NCBI GenBank assembly: GCA_030526425.1
Contig: JAUNCT010000002.1
Span: 1 to 64,000 of the forward strand
DNA: 64,000 bases
Direction of reading: 5' to 3'
Source of the DNA: Clostridia bacterium
GTDB taxonomy: Bacteria; Bacillota; Clostridia; Christensenellales; CAG-138
The number at the start of each line of letters is the position of its first letter. Position 1 is the first letter of the stretch. Made by a program: the position numbers and the translations under genes. Positions 15,533 to 22,265 of the stretch are shown here, piece after piece. The notes under the pieces are model-generated. The model saw nothing but the letters and a program-made list of their open reading frames with translations, was not told the DNA's origin and did not search any database.

Positions 15533-15675
15533 CCCCCGTTCCCACCCGCCGGAAACCTGTCCTCCTATTCAAAACGATTCTTTCCTTGGATTTTCCACTC
15601 GTTCCCGGCGGTTCCCCCGCAGCGCCCTTTTTGATTGGTGAAGGCACGCTGCGGGGGCTTTTTGTTTGCGATGTA

Positions 15676-15710
15676 CAAAAAACGGAGCCCCCGAAAGGGC
15701 TCCGTTTCGT
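15676..15710 (+). terminator. Terminator after the permease; a second, weaker hairpin lies at about 15618-15670
   Basis: aacggagccc / gggctccgtt stem with a T-rich tail. Confidence 0.7.
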
Positions 15711-16156
15711 TGTGGTACTGATATTCGGAAAAGCATCGGCCCTCCGCAGGAGGCTCCACTTGGGAATGTGCTGCAAAACGCTCACCGTTCTCAAGCGCCT
15801 TTGGCGCTTGGCTCCACTTGAGGAAGCAAGGGGATGCCCGAGCGTGCCGAAGGCGTGCGGGGCGCGACAGCTGTTGCCGAAGGCAATAGCGAAAGCGTGG
15901 CGAGCGCAAGCGAGACTGAGGGGTTTCGATGCAAGTAGGGTTCCTTTGGATTTCAACCCGCAAGCATTTCCGATAGTGGCAAGCGTTGACCTCGCACAGA
16001 ACCGATAGCCGCTCCCAACGCGATATGCCTCCCTCTGGAGGGAGGCCGAGTGTTGCGAAGCAATACGGGGCGCGGCAGTGGTGCTTGCACCACGAGAGCG
16101 GGGCACGCCGTGCAGTAGGCGCATCGGGACGGAAGGAGTTCTCTCCCACGCGACAC

Positions 16157-16192
16157 ACAAAAACGGAGCCCTTTTACGGGGCTCCGTTTTGT
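16157..16192 (-). terminator. Terminator of the TIR operon (also usable on the plus strand)
   Basis: aaacggagccc / gggctccgttt stem, nearly identical to the hairpin at 15681-15706, with T-runs on both sides. Confidence 0.7.
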
Positions 16193-16300
16193 GCCTTTCC
16201 GCCCGCCTGCGGCGGGAAGGGCGCCTGCGGCGCAGCGGCATAATAACCGCCACACCGCACCGTCATTTTCGTTTCCCGTTACCTTCGGATTGATTTCAGA

Positions 16301-19141
16301 TCAGAAGATATCGGATTCAAGATTCATCCAAAAAGCGGGGCGAACACAGCCACCGTCGTCGTTGACATAGTTGAGGAGGGAGCCGTAGGGGTACACGCGA
16401 GCGGCACAGTCCTGATTGAGGCCGGGGGAGCGCAGCCACCAACACCCGGCGGCAGCCCCTTCCGCGGTCTTATAGTCCTCGTTCGTCCAAGCACCTTGCT
16501 CTTTTGCGTACGCCGTCGGCTGCACGCGGGATTTCGTGTTCTTATCCGCGCCACTCTTCTGCCAATACTCGACGCCGAAATACTTGTTCGCCTCGGCGTA
16601 GCTCAAAAGGAACACCTTGTCCTTCGTGTCGTTGCCGCCGTTGGTGCTCCACTTGCTGTACCCCTGACTCTTGCCGTTGTCCACTTCCGTCGTCAGGATA
16701 GCCTTCTGTTCTTCCGCCGTGAACGCCTTGTTCAAAAACTCGCCGTTCAGCCAGGTGCGCAGCGTGCACTTTTCCCACGTGACGCTCGTGTCTTTCGTGT
16801 TGTATGGTTTTGCATCCAAACCGTATTTTGCTATCAGCAGCGACTTGTCGCCTTTTACATCCAGCACGATCCATTCGATCGGTTCCGCGCCGTTCGATGT
16901 GTTGTTGTCCTGCTCGTAGCTGCCGAAGGTCACGACGCTGCCCACCGTGCGGTAAAGCTTGCGCTTCGCTTCGCGCGCCGCCGCCGCCGCCGCCAGATTG
17001 TCGTCCGTTTTCAGCAGCGTGTCAACATCCTTGTAACCTTTCAGCGGCAAAAACACATCATACGCTTTATCATAATTCTTTGCCGCAAGCAGTGCCTTGC
17101 CCTGTTGGTACTTCGTTTCGGAAACCTGCGTCGCGGCGTCCTTGTAGCCGCCGAGCTCTTCGAACGCCAGCACGGCGCCCGCGTAATTTCCCGCTTCCCG
17201 CAGGGCGACCGCCTTGTTGTAGTTGCCGCTCGGGATGATGACCTTCGTCACCACGAGAAACACGGCAACGCACAGCGCCGCCGCGGCGGTGGCGATGGTG
17301 ATGAGCCGCCTGCGCTTTGCGGCGGCTTCCTCCGCGGCGATCCTTTCGCGTTCCTCCGCTTGTCTCCGGCGCTCTTCCTCTTGGCGGCGGCGTTCCTCTT
17401 CGGCGCGCCGTTCTTCCGTCTCGATGCGCCCGATCTCCGCGGCGCACCGGCGCGCAAGTTCCGCACTGTCCTTGTAACCGTGCATGGCTTCGAGCGCGGT
17501 CTTCGCGTTTGCAAAGCCCTGCTTGTCGCGCGCGGCGTTCATGGTGCCGGCAGCCTTCTCGTAATCGGCTTCGCGCTTCTTCACGGCACCATCATGCAGC
17601 TTGGCGACCTTGGCGTCCGCCGCCGCAAGGTGCGCCTTGTAAGCGTTGCACACCCTTTCGGTGCTCGCTTTGTCCTGCGCTTCGGCTTGGGCAACGCGCG
17701 CATCCAACGCGGCGTTGATTTCCGCTACCGCGGCTTCGGTCTGCTGCTTGGTTTCGCCCTTGGCGTACTGCCGCGCGCGGTTCAGCAGGCGGTCGTTCGC
17801 AAGCGCCCTTTTCTGCTGTTCCCGCTGGCTGCGCCTGCCCGCAAGCACGCTGTCATAGCCCCGGTCGAACGCGTACGGTAACCGGATCTCCTTTTCCGCA
17901 AGGTAGTGCGCAACGGTGTTTTCCTTCACCGCCCGTGCGATGTGCATCGTATCCTCGGGGCACGCGGTCAGCCGCTCCGCCGGAGGTTGCTTTTCGTTGC
18001 GCCCGCATTCCGCCTTCACCCACGAAGCGAGAGAGGGCTTCTTTTCCCGCGCGAGCAGCTTGCCGATGAACGCCTCCGCGCACTCGGGCTCGAGGTTCAG
18101 CGCCTCCTCGAAAAAGCCGTCCGCCTTTTCCCACTCGTGGTCTTCGAGCGCCATGTTGCCGCGCTTCACCTGTGCGGCGGTGGTCGTTCCGCCCACGGTC
18201 GCTTGCGTTACGACGGTCTGCACCTTGGGCGCTTCCGGCTTCTTGCCGGCATCCAGCACCTTTTTCACGCCGCGCAGCAGGTCCTGCATGAAGCCGATCT
18301 TGCCCATATCCTGGCTTTGCAGGTTGCTCAGCTCCTCCGGCAGGTCGTAGGGGTCCATCCCCCGGTAGCAGGGGATGAGCAGGCGCTTTCGGTCGTTCGC
18401 CATCAGGGCGAGGTAGCGGCTCCACTCGTTTTTGACCCACACGGCGTTGAAGTATTCGGGCTTGCTGCCGACCGCCACCATGACCTTGGCGGAATTCAGC
18501 GCCGCGAAGATATACGGTTCGTACTGCTGCCCCAGCTTGTCTTCGAGCGTGATGCGGCTGAAGAACACCTTGTAGCCCTGTTCGGCAAGCCCGTAATAGA
18601 TCTCCTGCGCCCACTGCGAGTCGCGCGTGCGCTGCCCGTTCTCATCCGTTTCCTTGTAGCAGATGAACACATCGTAGGGCTTTTCGTTCGCCGAAATCGC
18701 GAGGATGCCCTTTTGGATCTCGGCGATGCGCTGCGCCTCCGCCTTGTAGATGTTCGCGCTCTCCGCATCCGGCGCATGTTCAACGGCGGCAAGGTAATCC
18801 GCATCCGCGAGGATGCTCGCCACCTGCACGCGGTGGCAGGTCGGGATGCGCTGCTTGGTTTTCGGGTCTTCGACGTATTCGATGCCGTAACGGCTCAGCA
18901 CAGCGCCCCAATGCGCCTCGGCGTCCGTGTCGTCCTGCTCGAGCAGCTTTTCATACGCCGCGACCGCCTTGTCGAATTCGCACTGCCGGCGGAAGTGGTT
19001 CGCCCGGTTGTAGCGGTTGAGCTGCTGCTCGTCTTCCGCCTTCGGGATGGTCGAAACGCTCCCGCAGTATTCGCACGTGCCGTAGGTATCCCCCGGCGTG
19101 AACGCGATGTCCCCACCGCACATTTTGCATTTGATGATCAT
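16301..19141 (-). CDS. Zinc-ribbon / TIR-domain / single-pass TM / extracellular TPR-like plus DUF6273-like domain protein
   Basis: N-terminal CxxC...CxxC ribbon. TIR core KPYDVFICYKETDENG...KVFF with candidate catalytic Glu in AVWVKNEWSRYL. Glu/Arg-rich coiled coil, then TM helix LITIATAAAALCVAVFLVVTKVII. C-terminal domain has a CWWLRSPG...VRPAFWMNL motif. 946 aa. ATG lies 3 nt after the upstream gene's stop. Confidence 0.85.
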   Translation of the reverse strand: MIIKCKMCGGDIAFTPGDTYGTCEYCGSVSTIPKAEDEQQLNRYNRANHFRRQCEFDKAVAAYEKLLEQDDTDAEAHWGAVLSRYGIEYVEDPKTKQRIPTCHRVQVASILADADYLAAVEHAPDAESANIYKAEAQRIAEIQKGILAISANEKPYDVFICYKETDENGQRTRDSQWAQEIYYGLAEQGYKVFFSRITLEDKLGQQYEPYIFAALNSAKVMVAVGSKPEYFNAVWVKNEWSRYLALMANDRKRLLIPCYRGMDPYDLPEELSNLQSQDMGKIGFMQDLLRGVKKVLDAGKKPEAPKVQTVVTQATVGGTTTAAQVKRGNMALEDHEWEKADGFFEEALNLEPECAEAFIGKLLAREKKPSLASWVKAECGRNEKQPPAERLTACPEDTMHIARAVKENTVAHYLAEKEIRLPYAFDRGYDSVLAGRRSQREQQKRALANDRLLNRARQYAKGETKQQTEAAVAEINAALDARVAQAEAQDKASTERVCNAYKAHLAAADAKVAKLHDGAVKKREADYEKAAGTMNAARDKQGFANAKTALEAMHGYKDSAELARRCAAEIGRIETEERRAEEERRRQEEERRRQAEERERIAAEEAAAKRRRLITIATAAAALCVAVFLVVTKVIIPSGNYNKAVALREAGNYAGAVLAFEELGGYKDAATQVSETKYQQGKALLAAKNYDKAYDVFLPLKGYKDVDTLLKTDDNLAAAAAAREAKRKLYRTVGSVVTFGSYEQDNNTSNGAEPIEWIVLDVKGDKSLLIAKYGLDAKPYNTKDTSVTWEKCTLRTWLNGEFLNKAFTAEEQKAILTTEVDNGKSQGYSKWSTNGGNDTKDKVFLLSYAEANKYFGVEYWQKSGADKNTKSRVQPTAYAKEQGAWTNEDYKTAEGAAAGCWWLRSPGLNQDCAARVYPYGSLLNYVNDDGGCVRPAFWMNLESDIF

Positions 19142-19144
19142 GAT

Positions 19145-19768
19145 TTATTTCTCCGCTGTTTCAAATCTCTTAAATCTGTTTTCGACTATTTCTTCAATGT
19201 TTTTTACGAGCAGTTCGATTTTCTTTATGTTTTCCGCGTCCTTTACGCTTATTGACTTTATCTCGTTCTTTTTATAATCCCCTTTATGCACTATCGCATT
19301 TCTTCTATCCACGAGTTTCTCAACATCTTTAAGCAATGCTTCGTCTTGTGACTTTCCCTGTGCATTTTCGGTTATCTTCGGCAAACCGTACAACGCAAAC
19401 AGTTCATCAATTACTTTCATCCTTTGTGTCGTATAGTGTTCATAGTACTGATAAACCTTATCTTGGATGCCGGAAAGAGATTGATTATCCCGATACATCT
19501 CGATTACCGTACCTATTGTCACACCATAATCCAACAGGCGTTTCTCGATATTCTCGTTGATTTCCTCATTATTGATAAAGGTATAGAAATGTTCAGCAAA
19601 ACAGTTCGTCATATATGCATCCATCGCCGCAACACTCAAAACGACAGCCGCACGTAACAAATCACAATTACCTTTGGGGTCTGTACCTGCTTTCTGATTG
19701 TTGTACAAAGCTACCAATTTGTTGCAACGATCTATCGTCTTCCGAAAAATCGTATATGCATTAGACAT
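19145..19768 (-). CDS. HEPN-motif protein (RNxxxH), probable Abi-type RNase; strongly AT-rich gene
   Basis: 207-aa ORF at roughly 38% GC inside a genome of about 63% GC. Canonical HEPN motif DRRNAIVHKG near the C-terminus. Confidence 0.6.
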   Translation of the reverse strand: MSNAYTIFRKTIDRCNKLVALYNNQKAGTDPKGNCDLLRAAVVLSVAAMDAYMTNCFAEHFYTFINNEEINENIEKRLLDYGVTIGTVIEMYRDNQSLSGIQDKVYQYYEHYTTQRMKVIDELFALYGLPKITENAQGKSQDEALLKDVEKLVDRRNAIVHKGDYKKNEIKSISVKDAENIKKIELLVKNIEEIVENRFKRFETAEK

Positions 19769-19777
19769 ACTACCCGC

Positions 19778-20410
19778 TTACTTCTTCTCCGCCTTCGCGA
19801 CCGTCTTCCGCTCTTCCACCATCCGCAGCGCTTCGGCGACATCGCCCTTTTCCACCGCTTCGGCGATCCTTCCGTCCATGCTCGTCGGGGTCGGGTCGGC
19901 ACAGCGCACGGCTTCCGCCAGCCGCTTCGCCGCGGGGTCTTTCGTTTTCGCCGCAAGGGCGTTGACCGCGGTGCGGATGGCTTTCCATCCGGCGGTCGTG
20001 TCCTTCACGCGTTGTTCGCTCTTTTCCACCGCTTCGCGCACGGCTTGCTTTACGCTCAGCGCCATCAGCGTGCCGAGCACCAAAGCGATCTCGATAATGA
20101 GCGCGAGCCACAGCGGGCACAGCTTCGAAAACGCCATCAGCAGCAGACCGGCGACGAGCTGCGCCGCCAGCGCCGCACAGCCCACCCGGTACAGGGGCCA
20201 GCCGATCAGCTTGCTCTGCAAGCCTTGCGCCTTGCCGAACGCCAAATAAAACGCAACAGCGCACAGGGCGAACATCACCGCATCCGCGCCGAGCGCGACA
20301 TAAAACACCGCCGTCCGCGCGAAGGGGAACAGCAGCGCCACCGCCGCAACGAGCAGCAGCGCCAACAGCCAAACCTTGATTGCCTGCTTCGATTCTTTCA
20401 TCGTTTCCAC
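19778..20410 (-). CDS. Small membrane protein (4 predicted TM helices plus a helical cytoplasmic tail)
   Basis: 210 aa. Hydrophobic segments across aa 10-120. Stop and start are tightly spaced with the flanking genes. Confidence 0.6.
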   Translation of the reverse strand: METMKESKQAIKVWLLALLLVAAVALLFPFARTAVFYVALGADAVMFALCAVAFYLAFGKAQGLQSKLIGWPLYRVGCAALAAQLVAGLLLMAFSKLCPLWLALIIEIALVLGTLMALSVKQAVREAVEKSEQRVKDTTAGWKAIRTAVNALAAKTKDPAAKRLAEAVRCADPTPTSMDGRIAEAVEKGDVAEALRMVEERKTVAKAEKK

Positions 20411-20411
20411 C

Positions 20412-22265
20412 TCACTCGGGTCGTTTGCCGCCGCACTCGGGGCAGAACTTCGCCGTTACGCCCTTGTTGCCGCAGGCGCAATCCCACACGGCGGGGGCTT
20501 CGGGCTTTTTCGCCCCGCACTCGGGGCAAAACTTGCTTGTGATGCCCGTTGCGCCGCACGCGCAGCTCCACGCCGCCGGGGCTTCGGGCTTTTTCGCCCC
20601 GCACTCGGGGCAGAACCTGCTGGTAATGCCCTTGGCACCGCAGGCGCAGTCCCAAGCATCCGCCGCAGCGGGCGCGGGCTTCTTCGCGCCGCATTCGGGG
20701 CAGAAGTTCGAGGTGATGTTCTTTGCGCCGCACGCGCAGGTCCATCCGCCCATGCCGGCCGCCTGCCCGAGCACGCCGCCCGCCTGTTGGGTCAGGGGCG
20801 AAACGGCTTCCTTCGTCATGCCGATCACGCCGCCCATCACGCCGAGCCCGATGCCCAGCTGCATCGCATCCCCGGCGATGGTGCCGAGTCCGCCCGCGCC
20901 GCCGTTCCGCACGGCTTCCGTGCCCACCTGCCGCGCGGTCTCCTGCTGGTAGGTGTAGCCCTTCATCTTCATTTCCATGGCTTCCGCCTCCGCCTGCATG
21001 CGGTAAGCGTCCGCCTCTGCCTGCGCTTGGATGCGCAGCGCGTCCGCATCGCCCTGCGCGCCGATGACCTTCATGCGCGCGGCGGTCTGCGCCTCCACGG
21101 CCTTGCGTTCGAACGCCGCCTCCGCCTCCGCTTTTTTGATCGCCTCTTCCTTCGTTTTCAGGTACAGGTCGGCGTGCTGCTGCTTCATGCGGCGGAAGTT
21201 CGGGTCGTCGTCGGGCGTGACGATGTTCGCCACGTAGAACTCCGGCATTTCGAGACCGTATTCCGAAAGCTCGGGGTCGATCGCCGCCTTCATCGCCGCG
21301 GCGATGGCGTCGAGATGCATATCGAGCTCGAGCACGCTGATGCTGTTTTGCTTGATGACCCGCGCGAGGTTCGCCTTGACCTTGGCGGCGATCATCGTGC
21401 GGAAATATCCGCCGATGGCGCGCGCGCCGATCGCCCCGCCTTCGCCGAACAGGTCGCCCTGCGTCAGCCCGCCCGCGGTGCCCACCAGCTTGATGAGCAG
21501 CTTCCGCGCATCCGTCACGCGCATGTTGAACGCACCCGATGCGCCGAGCTCCACGTGCATGCCCGTCGCGGGGTCGAACAAACCGACCTTACTCGGCGTG
21601 CCCCACTTGATGCCCGCCTGCGTGGTGAGGTTCACGAAGTAGACCTCCGCATGGAAGGGCTGCCCGTCGACGGGCAGGCGGTACAGGGCTTCCGTCTTCG
21701 GCATCACGCCGGTTTCGAGCGTGTAGCCGCCCGGTCCGAAGGAGTCGAGCGCCTCGCCGTTGCGGAAGAACACCGCCTCCTGACTTTCGTGCACGATGAG
21801 GCGGCTGCCCGTCGTAAAGTCGGTGAGCGGGTGCTTCCACACGAAGGTGTCGTTCGCCCCTTCGTAGCGGATCACCGCGGGCACGCCCTTGTCGCGCACC
21901 TCCGCGCGTTTGATCTCCTTTTGCACATCCGCCACGGTGTCGCACACGGGGCAGGTGATGTGCGCCGCGCCCTTCGAAGCCTGCAGCTCGCAGCCGCAGG
22001 TCTCACAGCGGAAGTGCACGAGGTTGCCGTAATCGGCTTCCGTCACGAGCTGCTGCCTGCACACGGGGCACTTCGCATCCGTGCCCTCCGCCTGGTCGTA
22101 AACGACGTTGTTCCCGCAGGAGGGGCAGGTCTTCGTGGTCATGCGGTCCGTCTTCACGTGGATGACGTTGCCGCAGCTGCATTGGATGTGCTTGGATGCG
22201 AAAAAGCCCGTGCTTGCCTGCACATAGCTGTGGCAAACCGGGCATGCGATGATGAATTTTCCCAT
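20412..22265 (-). CDS. SPFH/band-7 (COG4260-type) protein with N-terminal and C-terminal zinc-ribbon arrays
   Basis: N-terminal run of CxxC motifs, then an SPFH-like core (VIRYEGANDTFVWKHPL...), a coiled coil, and four C-terminal W-C-x-C-G...F-C-P-E-C-G-x-K-(K/R)-P-E repeats. 617 aa. Confidence 0.8.
   Translation of the reverse strand: MGKFIIACPVCHSYVQASTGFFASKHIQCSCGNVIHVKTDRMTTKTCPSCGNNVVYDQAEGTDAKCPVCRQQLVTEADYGNLVHFRCETCGCELQASKGAAHITCPVCDTVADVQKEIKRAEVRDKGVPAVIRYEGANDTFVWKHPLTDFTTGSRLIVHESQEAVFFRNGEALDSFGPGGYTLETGVMPKTEALYRLPVDGQPFHAEVYFVNLTTQAGIKWGTPSKVGLFDPATGMHVELGASGAFNMRVTDARKLLIKLVGTAGGLTQGDLFGEGGAIGARAIGGYFRTMIAAKVKANLARVIKQNSISVLELDMHLDAIAAAMKAAIDPELSEYGLEMPEFYVANIVTPDDDPNFRRMKQQHADLYLKTKEEAIKKAEAEAAFERKAVEAQTAARMKVIGAQGDADALRIQAQAEADAYRMQAEAEAMEMKMKGYTYQQETARQVGTEAVRNGGAGGLGTIAGDAMQLGIGLGVMGGVIGMTKEAVSPLTQQAGGVLGQAAGMGGWTCACGAKNITSNFCPECGAKKPAPAAADAWDCACGAKGITSRFCPECGAKKPEAPAAWSCACGATGITSKFCPECGAKKPEAPAVWDCACGNKGVTAKFCPECGGKRPE
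20415..20744 (-). repeat. Four tandem DNA repeats of about 84 bp, each encoding one C-terminal zinc-ribbon module of the SPFH protein
   Basis: Near-identical nucleotide units and peptide repeats WxCACG..(I/V)T(S/A)xFCPECGxK(K/R)PE x4. Confidence 0.8.

Follow-up and report, generated by a model that had tools for sequence, protein, structure and literature searches.

A 64,000-nucleotide stretch of clostridial genomic DNA, referred to here as the window, carries a short AT-rich gene set between two GC-rich genes of an operon. This locus raises the question of whether the gene is a foreign cassette, how it came to fit the operon so closely, and whether its product works together with the proteins encoded around it. 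A sequence-only reading of the window had proposed the recent insertion or swap of a HEPN effector cassette into a pre-existing operon, a behavior typical of modular defense islands. The operon comprises four co-directional, tightly packed minus-strand genes encoding SPFH, 4TM, HEPN, and TIR proteins, with the following features.

20412 to 22265, minus strand: first operon gene, encoding a cytosolic SPFH/Band_7_1 protein of 617 amino acids (PF13421, E = 3.9e-36)
19778 to 20410, minus strand: 4TM gene, upstream of the HEPN gene, encoding 210 amino acids with a C-terminal soluble tail
19769 to 19777, minus strand: upstream junction, a 9-nt spacer from the 4TM stop to the HEPN ATG, inside the maximum-likelihood boundary 19763–19796
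19145 to 19768, minus strand: AT-rich HEPN open reading frame (ORF) of the RiboL-PSP-HEPN family, with ATG start and TAA stop, encoding a solo HEPN of 207 amino acids
19286 to 19303, minus strand: predicted active-site motif R156-N-A-I-V-H161 (Rx4H), from family alignment A1
19142 to 19154, minus strand: downstream junction, with GGAG at 19151–19154, the HEPN TAA at 19145–19147, and a 3-nt spacer at 19142–19144
16301 to 19141, minus strand: TIR gene, downstream of the HEPN gene, encoding 946 amino acids with Zn-ribbon, TPR, TIR_2, coiled-coil, transmembrane (TM), and DUF6273 regions

Composition and boundaries of the AT-rich gene

The HEPN ORF has a GC content of 0.381, with 0.447, 0.269, and 0.428 at the first, second, and third codon positions (GC1, GC2, and GC3). 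The GC and GC3 values of its operon partners are 0.660 and 0.874 for the SPFH gene, 0.638 and 0.815 for the 4TM gene, and 0.614 and 0.805 for the TIR gene. Across the 64 kb, 624-bp sliding windows have a mean GC of 0.625 (standard deviation 0.039); their minimum of 0.380, approximately 6 standard deviations under the mean, starts at 19134, and no stretch outside the region of the HEPN ORF falls below 0.47 at this window size. Block limits were obtained by two-change-point maximum-likelihood segmentation of GC, which placed the low-GC block at 19120–19788 (GC 0.380 inside and 0.635 outside) with support intervals of 19115–19129 and 19763–19796 for its edges. The composition thus switches at the ends of the HEPN ORF, within about 25 nt. 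The overshoot of about 25 nt on the TIR side is accounted for by the opening codons of the TIR gene (ATGATCATCAAATGCAAAATG), which are AT-rich in insert-free loci as well.

Codon use and amino acid content follow the same pattern. A CAI-like index of the HEPN ORF is 0.284, compared with 0.732 ± 0.084 for a set of 50 ORFs from elsewhere in the window (z = -5.3), a measure that is partly circular because the reference ORFs were picked by high GC3. FYMINK residues account for 38% of the HEPN protein, compared with 23%, a make-up of the AT-genome type. The composition of the HEPN ORF is foreign at all three codon positions, in amino acids, and in codon use. The sequence-only reading had put the ORF at about 38% GC on a background of about 63%, with a switch at both gene boundaries, spacers of 9 and 3 nt, and a GGAG inside the HEPN 3' end; all of these hold up on measurement or direct inspection, and both composition checks that it named, sliding-window GC and codon adaptation, single out the same ORF.

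AT-richness could instead mark a long-resident gene, in which selection has preserved AT-rich sequence so that rare codons or silencing hold a toxin at a low level, and which was not acquired recently in this lineage. A CAI of 0.28 would limit translation, and the AT content of many HEPN relatives exceeds that of the contigs on which they lie, both of which favor such an origin. However, GC1, GC2, and the amino acids are also of the AT-genome type, which goes beyond synonymous sites. Moreover, where HEPN relatives lie on GC-rich contigs, their genes are GC-rich too, with HEPN/contig GC values of 0.57/0.58 (L119), 0.59/0.58 (L127), 0.51/0.52 (L129), and 0.53/0.53 (L133), and AT-richness is therefore not intrinsic to the HEPN family or fold. 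Together with the evidence from related operons given below, these observations leave an old resident gene very unlikely.

The window proteins MDO4492395/397/398 are singletons from one metagenome-assembled genome ('Clostridia bacterium'), and exact-sequence look-ups of the HEPN and 4TM proteins returned only the same DNA (L001, 100% identical). Chimeric assembly is unlikely, since the identical 3.7 kb recurs in a Logan assembly made independently.

Family, motif, and fold of the HEPN protein

The HEPN protein matches Pfam family PF18735 (RiboL-PSP-HEPN) with 52.9 bits against a cut-off of 28.4, residues 11–197 aligning with positions 3–191 of the 191-position model. The motif DRRNAIVH, previously read as a canonical HEPN motif, was found at residues 154–161 (nt 19286–19309), and its core is invariant in 47 relatives: in alignment A1 of these family sequences, R39, R156, I159, and H161 do not vary and Rx4H is fully conserved. 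R156-NAIV-H161 conforms to the Rx4-6H pattern of RiboL-PSP-HEPN, and a confident structure model predicts the helical-bundle HEPN fold. By HMM, motif, and fold, the window protein is a genuine HEPN and a member of PF18735, which disposes of the concern that it might be a non-HEPN helical protein. The family is small: an exhaustive search of 1.84 billion cluster representatives yielded 212 relatives at E <= 0.001, the nearest being 46–49% identical and the best 49%.

Ribo L-PSP-HEPN was described as having a catalytic motif, as fused to endoRNase L-PSP or located in operons with ParB (Table 1), and as 'distantly related' to AbiD/AbiF (Anantharaman et al. 2013, PMC3710099). The window protein shares with this family the full-length HMM match, the Rx4-6H motif, a predicted all-helical fold, and a bacterial defense-linked context. 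Unlike the name-giving members, which occur as endoRNase L-PSP fusions or in ParB operons, it is a solo protein with 4TM and TIR neighbors; the endoRNase L-PSP/ParB context is typical of the PF18735 family and no requirement of its HMM definition. An SPFH-4TM-TIR operon context is absent from the RiboL-PSP-HEPN listing in PMC3710099. No sensor or adaptor domain lies outside the family core in the 47-sequence alignment.

PADLOC and NCBIfam gave no match for the HEPN protein, PDB sequence searches returned nothing significant, and Foldseek against viral structures gave no match at E < 0.49. Matches in PHROGs were to families of unknown function only. The Abi-type kinship suggested earlier did not survive comparison with Pfam, which places the protein in RiboL-PSP-HEPN and not in Abi_2; Abi_2 (AbiD/AbiF) identity was rejected because no HMM match was obtained, either at E <= 0.1 in Pfam or in PADLOC. 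The HEPN toxins of HEPN-MNT pairs (PDB 5yep, 7ae2, and 8xdj) have an MNT antitoxin, unlike the window HEPN. A HEPN-MNT type II toxin-antitoxin was accordingly rejected, because there is no MNT gene: the adjoining genes have no NTase domain and the 9-nt and 3-nt spacers leave no room for one.

As a solo HEPN with an intact Rx4H motif, the protein is most likely a metal-independent endoribonuclease, a prediction drawn from its sequence. It might alternatively be a non-catalytic HEPN that binds RNA and regulates the operon or modulates it like an antitoxin, or a functionless, decaying insertion. Some HEPN families are inactive, for example, MtlR (PMC3710099), and the weak-looking 5' ribosome-binding site and poor codon adaptation also favor such a reading. 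The invariant family residues, including Rx4H, are nevertheless all intact, the ORF is full length with a confidently modeled structure, and no MNT or other partner gene accompanies it. We regard a non-catalytic or decaying HEPN as highly improbable.

The site upstream of the TIR gene in related operons

Homologs of the N-terminal ZnR-TPR-TIR module number more than 2900, with at least 589 loci in species-representative genomes, mostly in gut and rumen Clostridia and sporadically in Victivallales, Synergistales, and others. In the closest operons (L010, L011, and L015), the TIR N-terminal (TIR-N) protein is 85–88% identical to that of the window and SPFH is 69–71% identical; in L011, the match extends to the C-terminal DUF6273 region. 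The site occupied by the HEPN gene is empty in all three, the 4TM stop lying 14–40 nt from the TIR ATG, as measured from the ORF ends, and the spacer containing only a ribosome-binding site. Searches by tblastn with the four window proteins found HEPN in none of 80 ZnR-TPR-TIR loci, and the HEPN turned up solely in L002 and in L001, whose DNA is that of the window itself. No chromosomal synteny beyond the operon was found with any related locus.

In other operons, the same position holds different genes, which are listed below with their GC content and that of the flanking 4TM and TIR-N regions, or of TIR-N where so stated.

L009 (TIR-N 90% identical): 232-amino-acid DUF2971 protein; GC 0.38, flanks 0.58 and 0.54
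L047: 227-amino-acid protein with no Pfam match; GC 0.34, flanks 0.54 and 0.52
L087: 141-amino-acid solo TIR; GC 0.35, flanks 0.56 and 0.52
L067: pEK499_p136-type HEPN; GC 0.34, flanks 0.46 and 0.49
L036: weak pEK499_p136-type HEPN match (23.6 bits, under the cut-off of 26.6); GC 0.41, TIR-N 0.52
L054: protein with no Pfam match; GC 0.35, flanks 0.48 and 0.48
L085: protein with no Pfam match; GC 0.32, TIR-N 0.49

Small AT-rich genes also lie directly 5' of TIR with no 4TM gene immediately upstream, encoding DUF4365 (L064), HNH (L060), or unassigned proteins (L034 and L053). An automated survey classified 73 usable loci by simple rules on ORFs and hydropathy, L054 and L067 being assigned individually: about 22 sites were empty, 9 held soluble-gene cassettes between 4TM and TIR, and about 13 had tandem TIR paralogs, the rest being other arrangements. 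The slot was defined here as a soluble-protein gene between 4TM and the ZnR-TPR-TIR start that is absent in the closest operons and AT-richer than its flanks; the window, L002, L009, L036, L047, L054, L067, L085, L087, and L089 conform to this definition. Relative to TIR-N, the GC of cassettes is offset by a median of -0.16 (n = 10), compared with -0.03 for 4TM genes (n = 22; Mann-Whitney p = 6e-6).

Because the same position is empty or otherwise filled in relatives, the site 5' of TIR appears, from these sequence comparisons, to be a swappable, hypervariable accessory slot of the SPFH-4TM-TIR operon. In most members of the operon family there is no cassette, and the core system therefore does not need HEPN. 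The slot also bears on whether the HEPN gene is an old resident. The slot cassettes exceed their flanks in AT content without exception and regardless of host GC, which would fit selection for AT-richness, whereas the absence of the gene from the closest operons speaks against long residence. A circumstance that would have spoken against an acquisition, namely that all related loci carry the gene in an operon of matching low GC, does not apply among the close relatives.

The HEPN proteins of L002 and L089 lie in the same 4TM-TIR slot and are approximately 46–48% identical to that of the window. L002 is a mosaic, with a HEPN GC of 0.34 against 0.50 for 4TM and about 0.55 for the 5' part of TIR; L089 is a low-GC locus (0.37 overall, HEPN 0.32, TIR 0.38). 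In L158–L160, a 40% identical HEPN gene follows the TIR stop by 43 nt, a position different from the slot, and the low-GC (0.37) SPFH-4TM-TIR operon of L158 lies between an integrase gene and a recombinase gene. The HEPN clade thus accompanies this operon in low-GC Clostridia in two gene orders, which makes the low-GC version the likeliest donor type. The donor presumably had a low-GC genome, plausibly one with a low-GC clostridial operon of the same type that already carried the HEPN clade; the donor search itself did not find it, the best relatives being 46–49% identical.

The earlier proposal of a recent insertion or swap into an existing operon consequently stands as regards the insertion, which the empty and otherwise filled slots support; 'recent' holds for this lineage only and not for the association, because the low-GC hosts L089 and L158 carry the HEPN clade in wholly low-GC operons. 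HEPN identity is 46–47% to both L002 and L089, yet TIR-N identity is 82% and 61%, respectively. HEPN divergence does not track flank divergence, which is a further point against an old resident gene. In a neighbor-joining tree, the three slot HEPNs fall among non-slot relatives with bootstrap values of 2–59%; they may represent one old gain plus exchange, or several gains.

A sister clade (100% bootstrap) is embedded between pglX and pglZ-brxL of BREX (L093, L094, and L096), and these HEPN genes are likewise AT-rich, tightly packed, and without signals of their own. This position fits the association of HEPN RNases with R-M/Pgl systems predicted by Anantharaman et al. 2013 (PMC3710099). A scan with the narrower HEPN alignment A2 retrieved 64 metagenome loci and one viral contig; none of the 64 metagenome loci has a TIR context.

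BrxU and PARIS are published cases of foreign defense-type genes embedded in the operons of other systems. Like the BREX accessory genes between pglX and pglZ, the window cassette is a small foreign defense-type gene inside another system's operon. Unlike them, it occupies a slot immediately 5' of a TIR gene and supplies the TIR ribosome-binding site.

The junctions bear on how the insertion took place. The GGAG Shine-Dalgarno (SD) sequence of the TIR gene lies within the last HEPN codons, 9 nt before the TIR ATG, and the window junction reads ...ACAGCGGAGAAATAA atc ATG. A short C-terminal extension bearing the TIR SD is present in all three slot HEPN ORFs (window, L002, and L089), the corresponding junctions being GAGGAGG...ATGA in L002 and AAGGAGTAG in L089; the non-slot relatives L090 and L091 end earlier, without it. 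Since the SD-bearing extension occurs in three slot loci, the right-hand insertion junction probably lay just upstream of the pre-existing TIR ribosome-binding site, as far as can be judged from sequence. On the left, the 4TM protein ends at a homologous residue in the window, L010, L011, L015, and L002 in the alignment, and nucleotide homology between loci restarts exactly at the TIR ATG; hence, the insert replaced only a short intergenic spacer. The ribosome-binding site at the 5' end of the HEPN gene itself looks weak.

Neither junction shows a target-site duplication, direct or terminal inverted repeats, or an attC-like hairpin. The cassette resembles integron gene cassettes in being a promoter-less single ORF, variable at a fixed site behind an upstream promoter; it differs from them in having no attC-like inverted repeat, spacers of only 9 and 3 nt, and no flanking repeats. 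Integron- or transposon-like insertion was rejected for lack of duplication, repeats, and attC-like hairpins, and because the spacers are too short. Over the TIR 5' end, nucleotide identity between the window and the closest loci is 74–82%, with the GC of those loci spanning 0.42–0.64. The likely route is recombination between operon variants via this highly conserved TIR 5' end; alternatively, illegitimate insertion may have been followed by trimming.

Consensus matches for a promoter or terminator within the cassette are no better than those in shuffled controls. There is no room for an own promoter, terminator, or antitoxin, and the cassette must therefore be co-transcribed with the operon. 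The arrangement of the HEPN stop and the TIR start is consistent with translational coupling, which is probable.

Host operon and possible role of the cassette

The SPFH protein carries N-terminal CxxC pairs and four C-terminal Zn-ribbon repeats, with no predicted TM segments. The 4TM protein has predicted TM segments at residues 13–31, 34–52, 76–94, and 102–120. In the 946-amino-acid TIR protein, Pfam places TIR_2 at residues 158–280, and a single TM helix is predicted at residues 613–631 with DUF6273 C-terminal to it; if the N-terminus is cytoplasmic, DUF6273 would be extracellular. Alignment with the flax L6 TIR matches its WCLMEL segment to a catalytic-type Glu239 (nt 18425–18427) of the window protein. 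Gut-phage receptor-binding proteins are known to carry DUF6273, a C-type-lectin-like binding domain (bioRxiv 10.1101/2024.10.15.618418). The domain is also known as a target of DGRs in gut phages; a DGR acting on the DUF6273 end was rejected, no template-repeat copy of the TIR gene 3' end being found in the window. Overall, the operon looks like a membrane-associated sensor-effector system.

The best hint to the role of the SPFH and 4TM genes comes by analogy from Bacillus subtilis pspA-ydjGHI (samGHI), which likewise places a cytosolic Band_7_1 SPFH gene beside a gene for a multi-pass membrane protein and includes Zn-ribbon elements. YdjI, with YdjG/H, is part of a PspA membrane-stress module (PMC8581546; bioRxiv 10.64898/2026.02.06.704340). 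Unlike that module, the window operon has no PspA gene, bears the Zn ribbons on SPFH itself, and is linked to TIR.

On either side of the operon lie housekeeping genes, for pyruvate kinase and a permease, and no tRNA genes or Rfam families were found in the 64-kb window. PADLOC gave no meaningful match on the window, the host operon being outside its models, and our literature searches on RiboL-PSP, SPFH with TIR, and DUF6273 retrieved no description of an SPFH-4TM-TIR operon. With these flanks and no PADLOC match, the immune role of the host operon is one that we infer, and the modular defense-island setting suggested by the sequence-only reading does not apply: the neighbors are pyruvate kinase and a permease, and the host operon is no established defense system.

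As in Thoeris, a TIR protein with a catalytic-type Glu is encoded beside a small candidate toxic effector gene. The differences are considerable: the HEPN protein has no ThsA-type SLOG/Macro or other ligand-sensing domain, the window TIR is a membrane protein with DUF6273 beyond its TM helix, and a separate effector is missing in most SPFH-4TM-TIR operons. Membership in Thoeris was rejected, given no PADLOC Thoeris match and no extra domain on HEPN. Signs of HEPN activation gated by a TIR-product ligand were not evident.

A functional precedent is HepS, a 'HEPN solo' abortive-infection protein of prophage Gifsy-1. HepS is constitutively made and autoinhibited as a tetramer; once activated by a phage tail-tip protein, it cleaves tRNAs in their anticodon loops (Sargen et al. 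2026, PMC13043305). HepS thus provides a precedent for a solo HEPN able to sense and act by itself. The window HEPN is similarly a single HEPN domain of <250 amino acids with no partner gene, yet it is embedded in an operon, whereas HepS is prophage-borne and independently expressed; no sequence relationship between the two was detectable.

By this precedent, the window HEPN could be a HepS-like solo abortive-infection gene that merely hitch-hikes, using the slot as an expressed safe harbor with no functional link to SPFH, 4TM, or TIR. HepS is itself a solo HEPN that both senses and kills (PMC13043305). Such autonomy is argued by the sister clade in the unrelated BREX operon (pglX-pglZ), the HEPN without an adaptor domain, and the lack of a cassette in most operons; other relatives lie beside IS21, beside a surface-protein gene, or with a 294-amino-acid partner, and the slot takes many unrelated genes. 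Conversely, four loci tie the HEPN clade to the same operon at 40–48% identity and in two gene orders, which argues for coupling and for retained linkage rather than chance, and the SD inside the HEPN ORF would tie its translation to that of TIR. An autonomous hitch-hiker is possible, though we consider it the less probable reading.

We favor, by a small degree over even chances, the interpretation that HEPN is an accessory effector whose expression at least, and probably also whose function, is integrated into the operon. According to this interpretation, HEPN was horizontally acquired as a promoter-less cassette, which sits between the 4TM stop and the TIR SD. HEPN would be translated from the operon mRNA, in small amounts because its codons are poorly adapted and its 5' ribosome-binding site looks weak; its stop lies 3 nt from the TIR ATG, and its last codons contain the ribosome-binding site of TIR. 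The protein would give a membrane-anchored, NADase-type TIR system an additional toxic effector. It may inhibit itself in the manner of HepS; once released by either a product of a phage or the sensor of the operon, it would cut RNA and cause growth arrest or abortive infection. The foreign composition, the empty or otherwise filled slots of relatives, the HEPN fold and motif, and the repeated linkage to this operon type are observations, and the RNase activity, defense role, trigger, and TIR coupling of the window HEPN are predictions.

A more far-reaching and rather unlikely view is that the slot 5' of TIR is a dedicated 'effector bay' of a widespread but undescribed membrane-anchored immune system of gut Clostridia. 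Such a system might combine an SPFH scaffold, 4TM, and a transmembrane TIR with an outward lectin-like or beta-propeller domain, and would receive interchangeable AT-rich nuclease or NADase cassettes (HEPN, DUF2971, TIR, and others) translationally coupled to TIR. Gating of the cassettes might come from the TPR/SPFH scaffold or from an NAD-derived signal that TIR produces. If this were true, HEPN would be one allele in a modular, system-level exchange of effectors and no chance insertion.

The embedding of foreign accessory genes in defense operons is a known phenomenon, and the sister clade shows it in BREX. As far as the searched libraries and literature extend, three aspects are new: the abundant SPFH-4TM-TIR operon family as host, the fixed hypervariable slot just 5' of TIR, and the gene-precise fit, by which the next gene takes its ribosome-binding site from the cassette. 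The locus offers a clean natural case of a putatively toxic accessory gene added to an operon without signals of its own, from stop codon to ribosome-binding site, and the natural empty and differently filled alleles can serve as controls for direct experiments. It also draws attention to an operon that is very common in gut and rumen Clostridia and goes unrecognized by PADLOC models. Solo HEPN clades appear to stay long-term with particular host operons, the TIR operon in one case and BREX in the sister clade, and the company they keep bears on the question of whether embedded HEPN RNases are independent defenses or second-line suicide modules.

Composition of the TIR and SPFH proteins

The 3' end of the SPFH gene (20412-20760) encodes a Zn-ribbon-like unit of about 28 aa in four tandem copies, with the pattern WxCxCG...FCPECGxKKPE, recognized both in translation and as blastn self-matches inside the gene; its copy number may differ among loci. 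The TIR protein ends in DUF6273 (16322-16849), a C-type-lectin-like domain described as being targeted by diversity-generating retroelements in receptor-binding proteins of gut phages (bioRxiv 10.1101/2024.10.15.618418). Neither a template repeat nor a second copy of this region was found anywhere in the window. Among relatives the C-terminal domain is swapped, with RCC1/WD40-type matches in one related locus (L002).

Variation around the TIR gene

Tandem paralogous ZnR-TPR-TIR genes, unlike in their C-terminal parts, occur as two or three per array in related loci (L023-L025, L039, L048, L050, L062, L063, L070, L074 and L083; three copies in L063), and TIR genes have been duplicated and diversified inside single loci. 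In five further loci (L019, L028, L043, L046 and L073), which are devoid of SPFH and 4TM genes upstream, a gene for a 64-82-aa protein lies directly 5' of the TIR gene. The common motif of these proteins, ...KKY..E...VS.R.P.D.L..LD..., makes them look like ribbon-helix-helix, antitoxin-type DNA binders, and the loci may represent a subtype under different regulation.

In the window, the approximately 770 bp from the TIR stop codon to the permease gene (15533-16300) contain no convincing ORF and gave no Rfam match. Two imperfect inverted-repeat pairs lie there side by side, enclosing about 440-470 bp:

15676-15699/16170-16193, imperfect inverted-repeat pair 1
15694-15714/16154-16174, imperfect inverted-repeat pair 2

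A small non-autonomous element is one possible reading of this stretch, a regulatory region another.

HEPN relatives in BREX operons and other settings

HEPN proteins of the sister clade, 39-44% identical to the window HEPN, are encoded in BREX type 1 operons, inserted between pglX and pglZ-brxL:

L093 3580-4203, sister-clade HEPN, its start overlapping the pglX stop (ATGA)
L094 6001-6630, sister-clade HEPN
L096 280-912, sister-clade HEPN

These embedded genes are AT-rich, with a GC of 0.30-0.39 against 0.41-0.52 in their flanks. Two more AT-rich genes (GC 0.30) are present in the same BREX locus at L094 3017-5020, with a methylase gene on one side and a 328-aa ORF after them; their products are of 388 aa (weak RES-domain match) and 263 aa (no Pfam match), and the pair of genes looks like a second embedded insert.

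An entire SPFH-4TM-TIR-HEPN operon appears to be carried on an integrative island in a pig-gut contig (L158 63-9773; likewise L159 and L160), where it is bordered by a phage-type integrase on one side and a recombinase fragment on the other, and adjoins an LRR_5 protein gene. At L161 2681-10487, a further HEPN-DUF6273 neighbourhood in which TIR is absent, the first 50 nt of a surface protein gene (GC 0.44; its 2397-aa product contains LRR_5, Flg_new and DUF6273 domains) overlap a gene for a 40% identical HEPN (GC 0.30).

Where the HEPN relative is more distant (29-36% identity), it is in every case followed by a gene for a 294-296-aa protein, which has no Pfam match and corresponds to phrog_3243, of unknown function:

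L003 1055-1939, after which lies a gene for a 1024-aa N6_N4 methyltransferase
L007 4938-5828
L119, L127, L130-L132 and L135-L136

Within the HEPN family, the distant HEPN and its 294-296-aa partner form a conserved two-gene module of their own.
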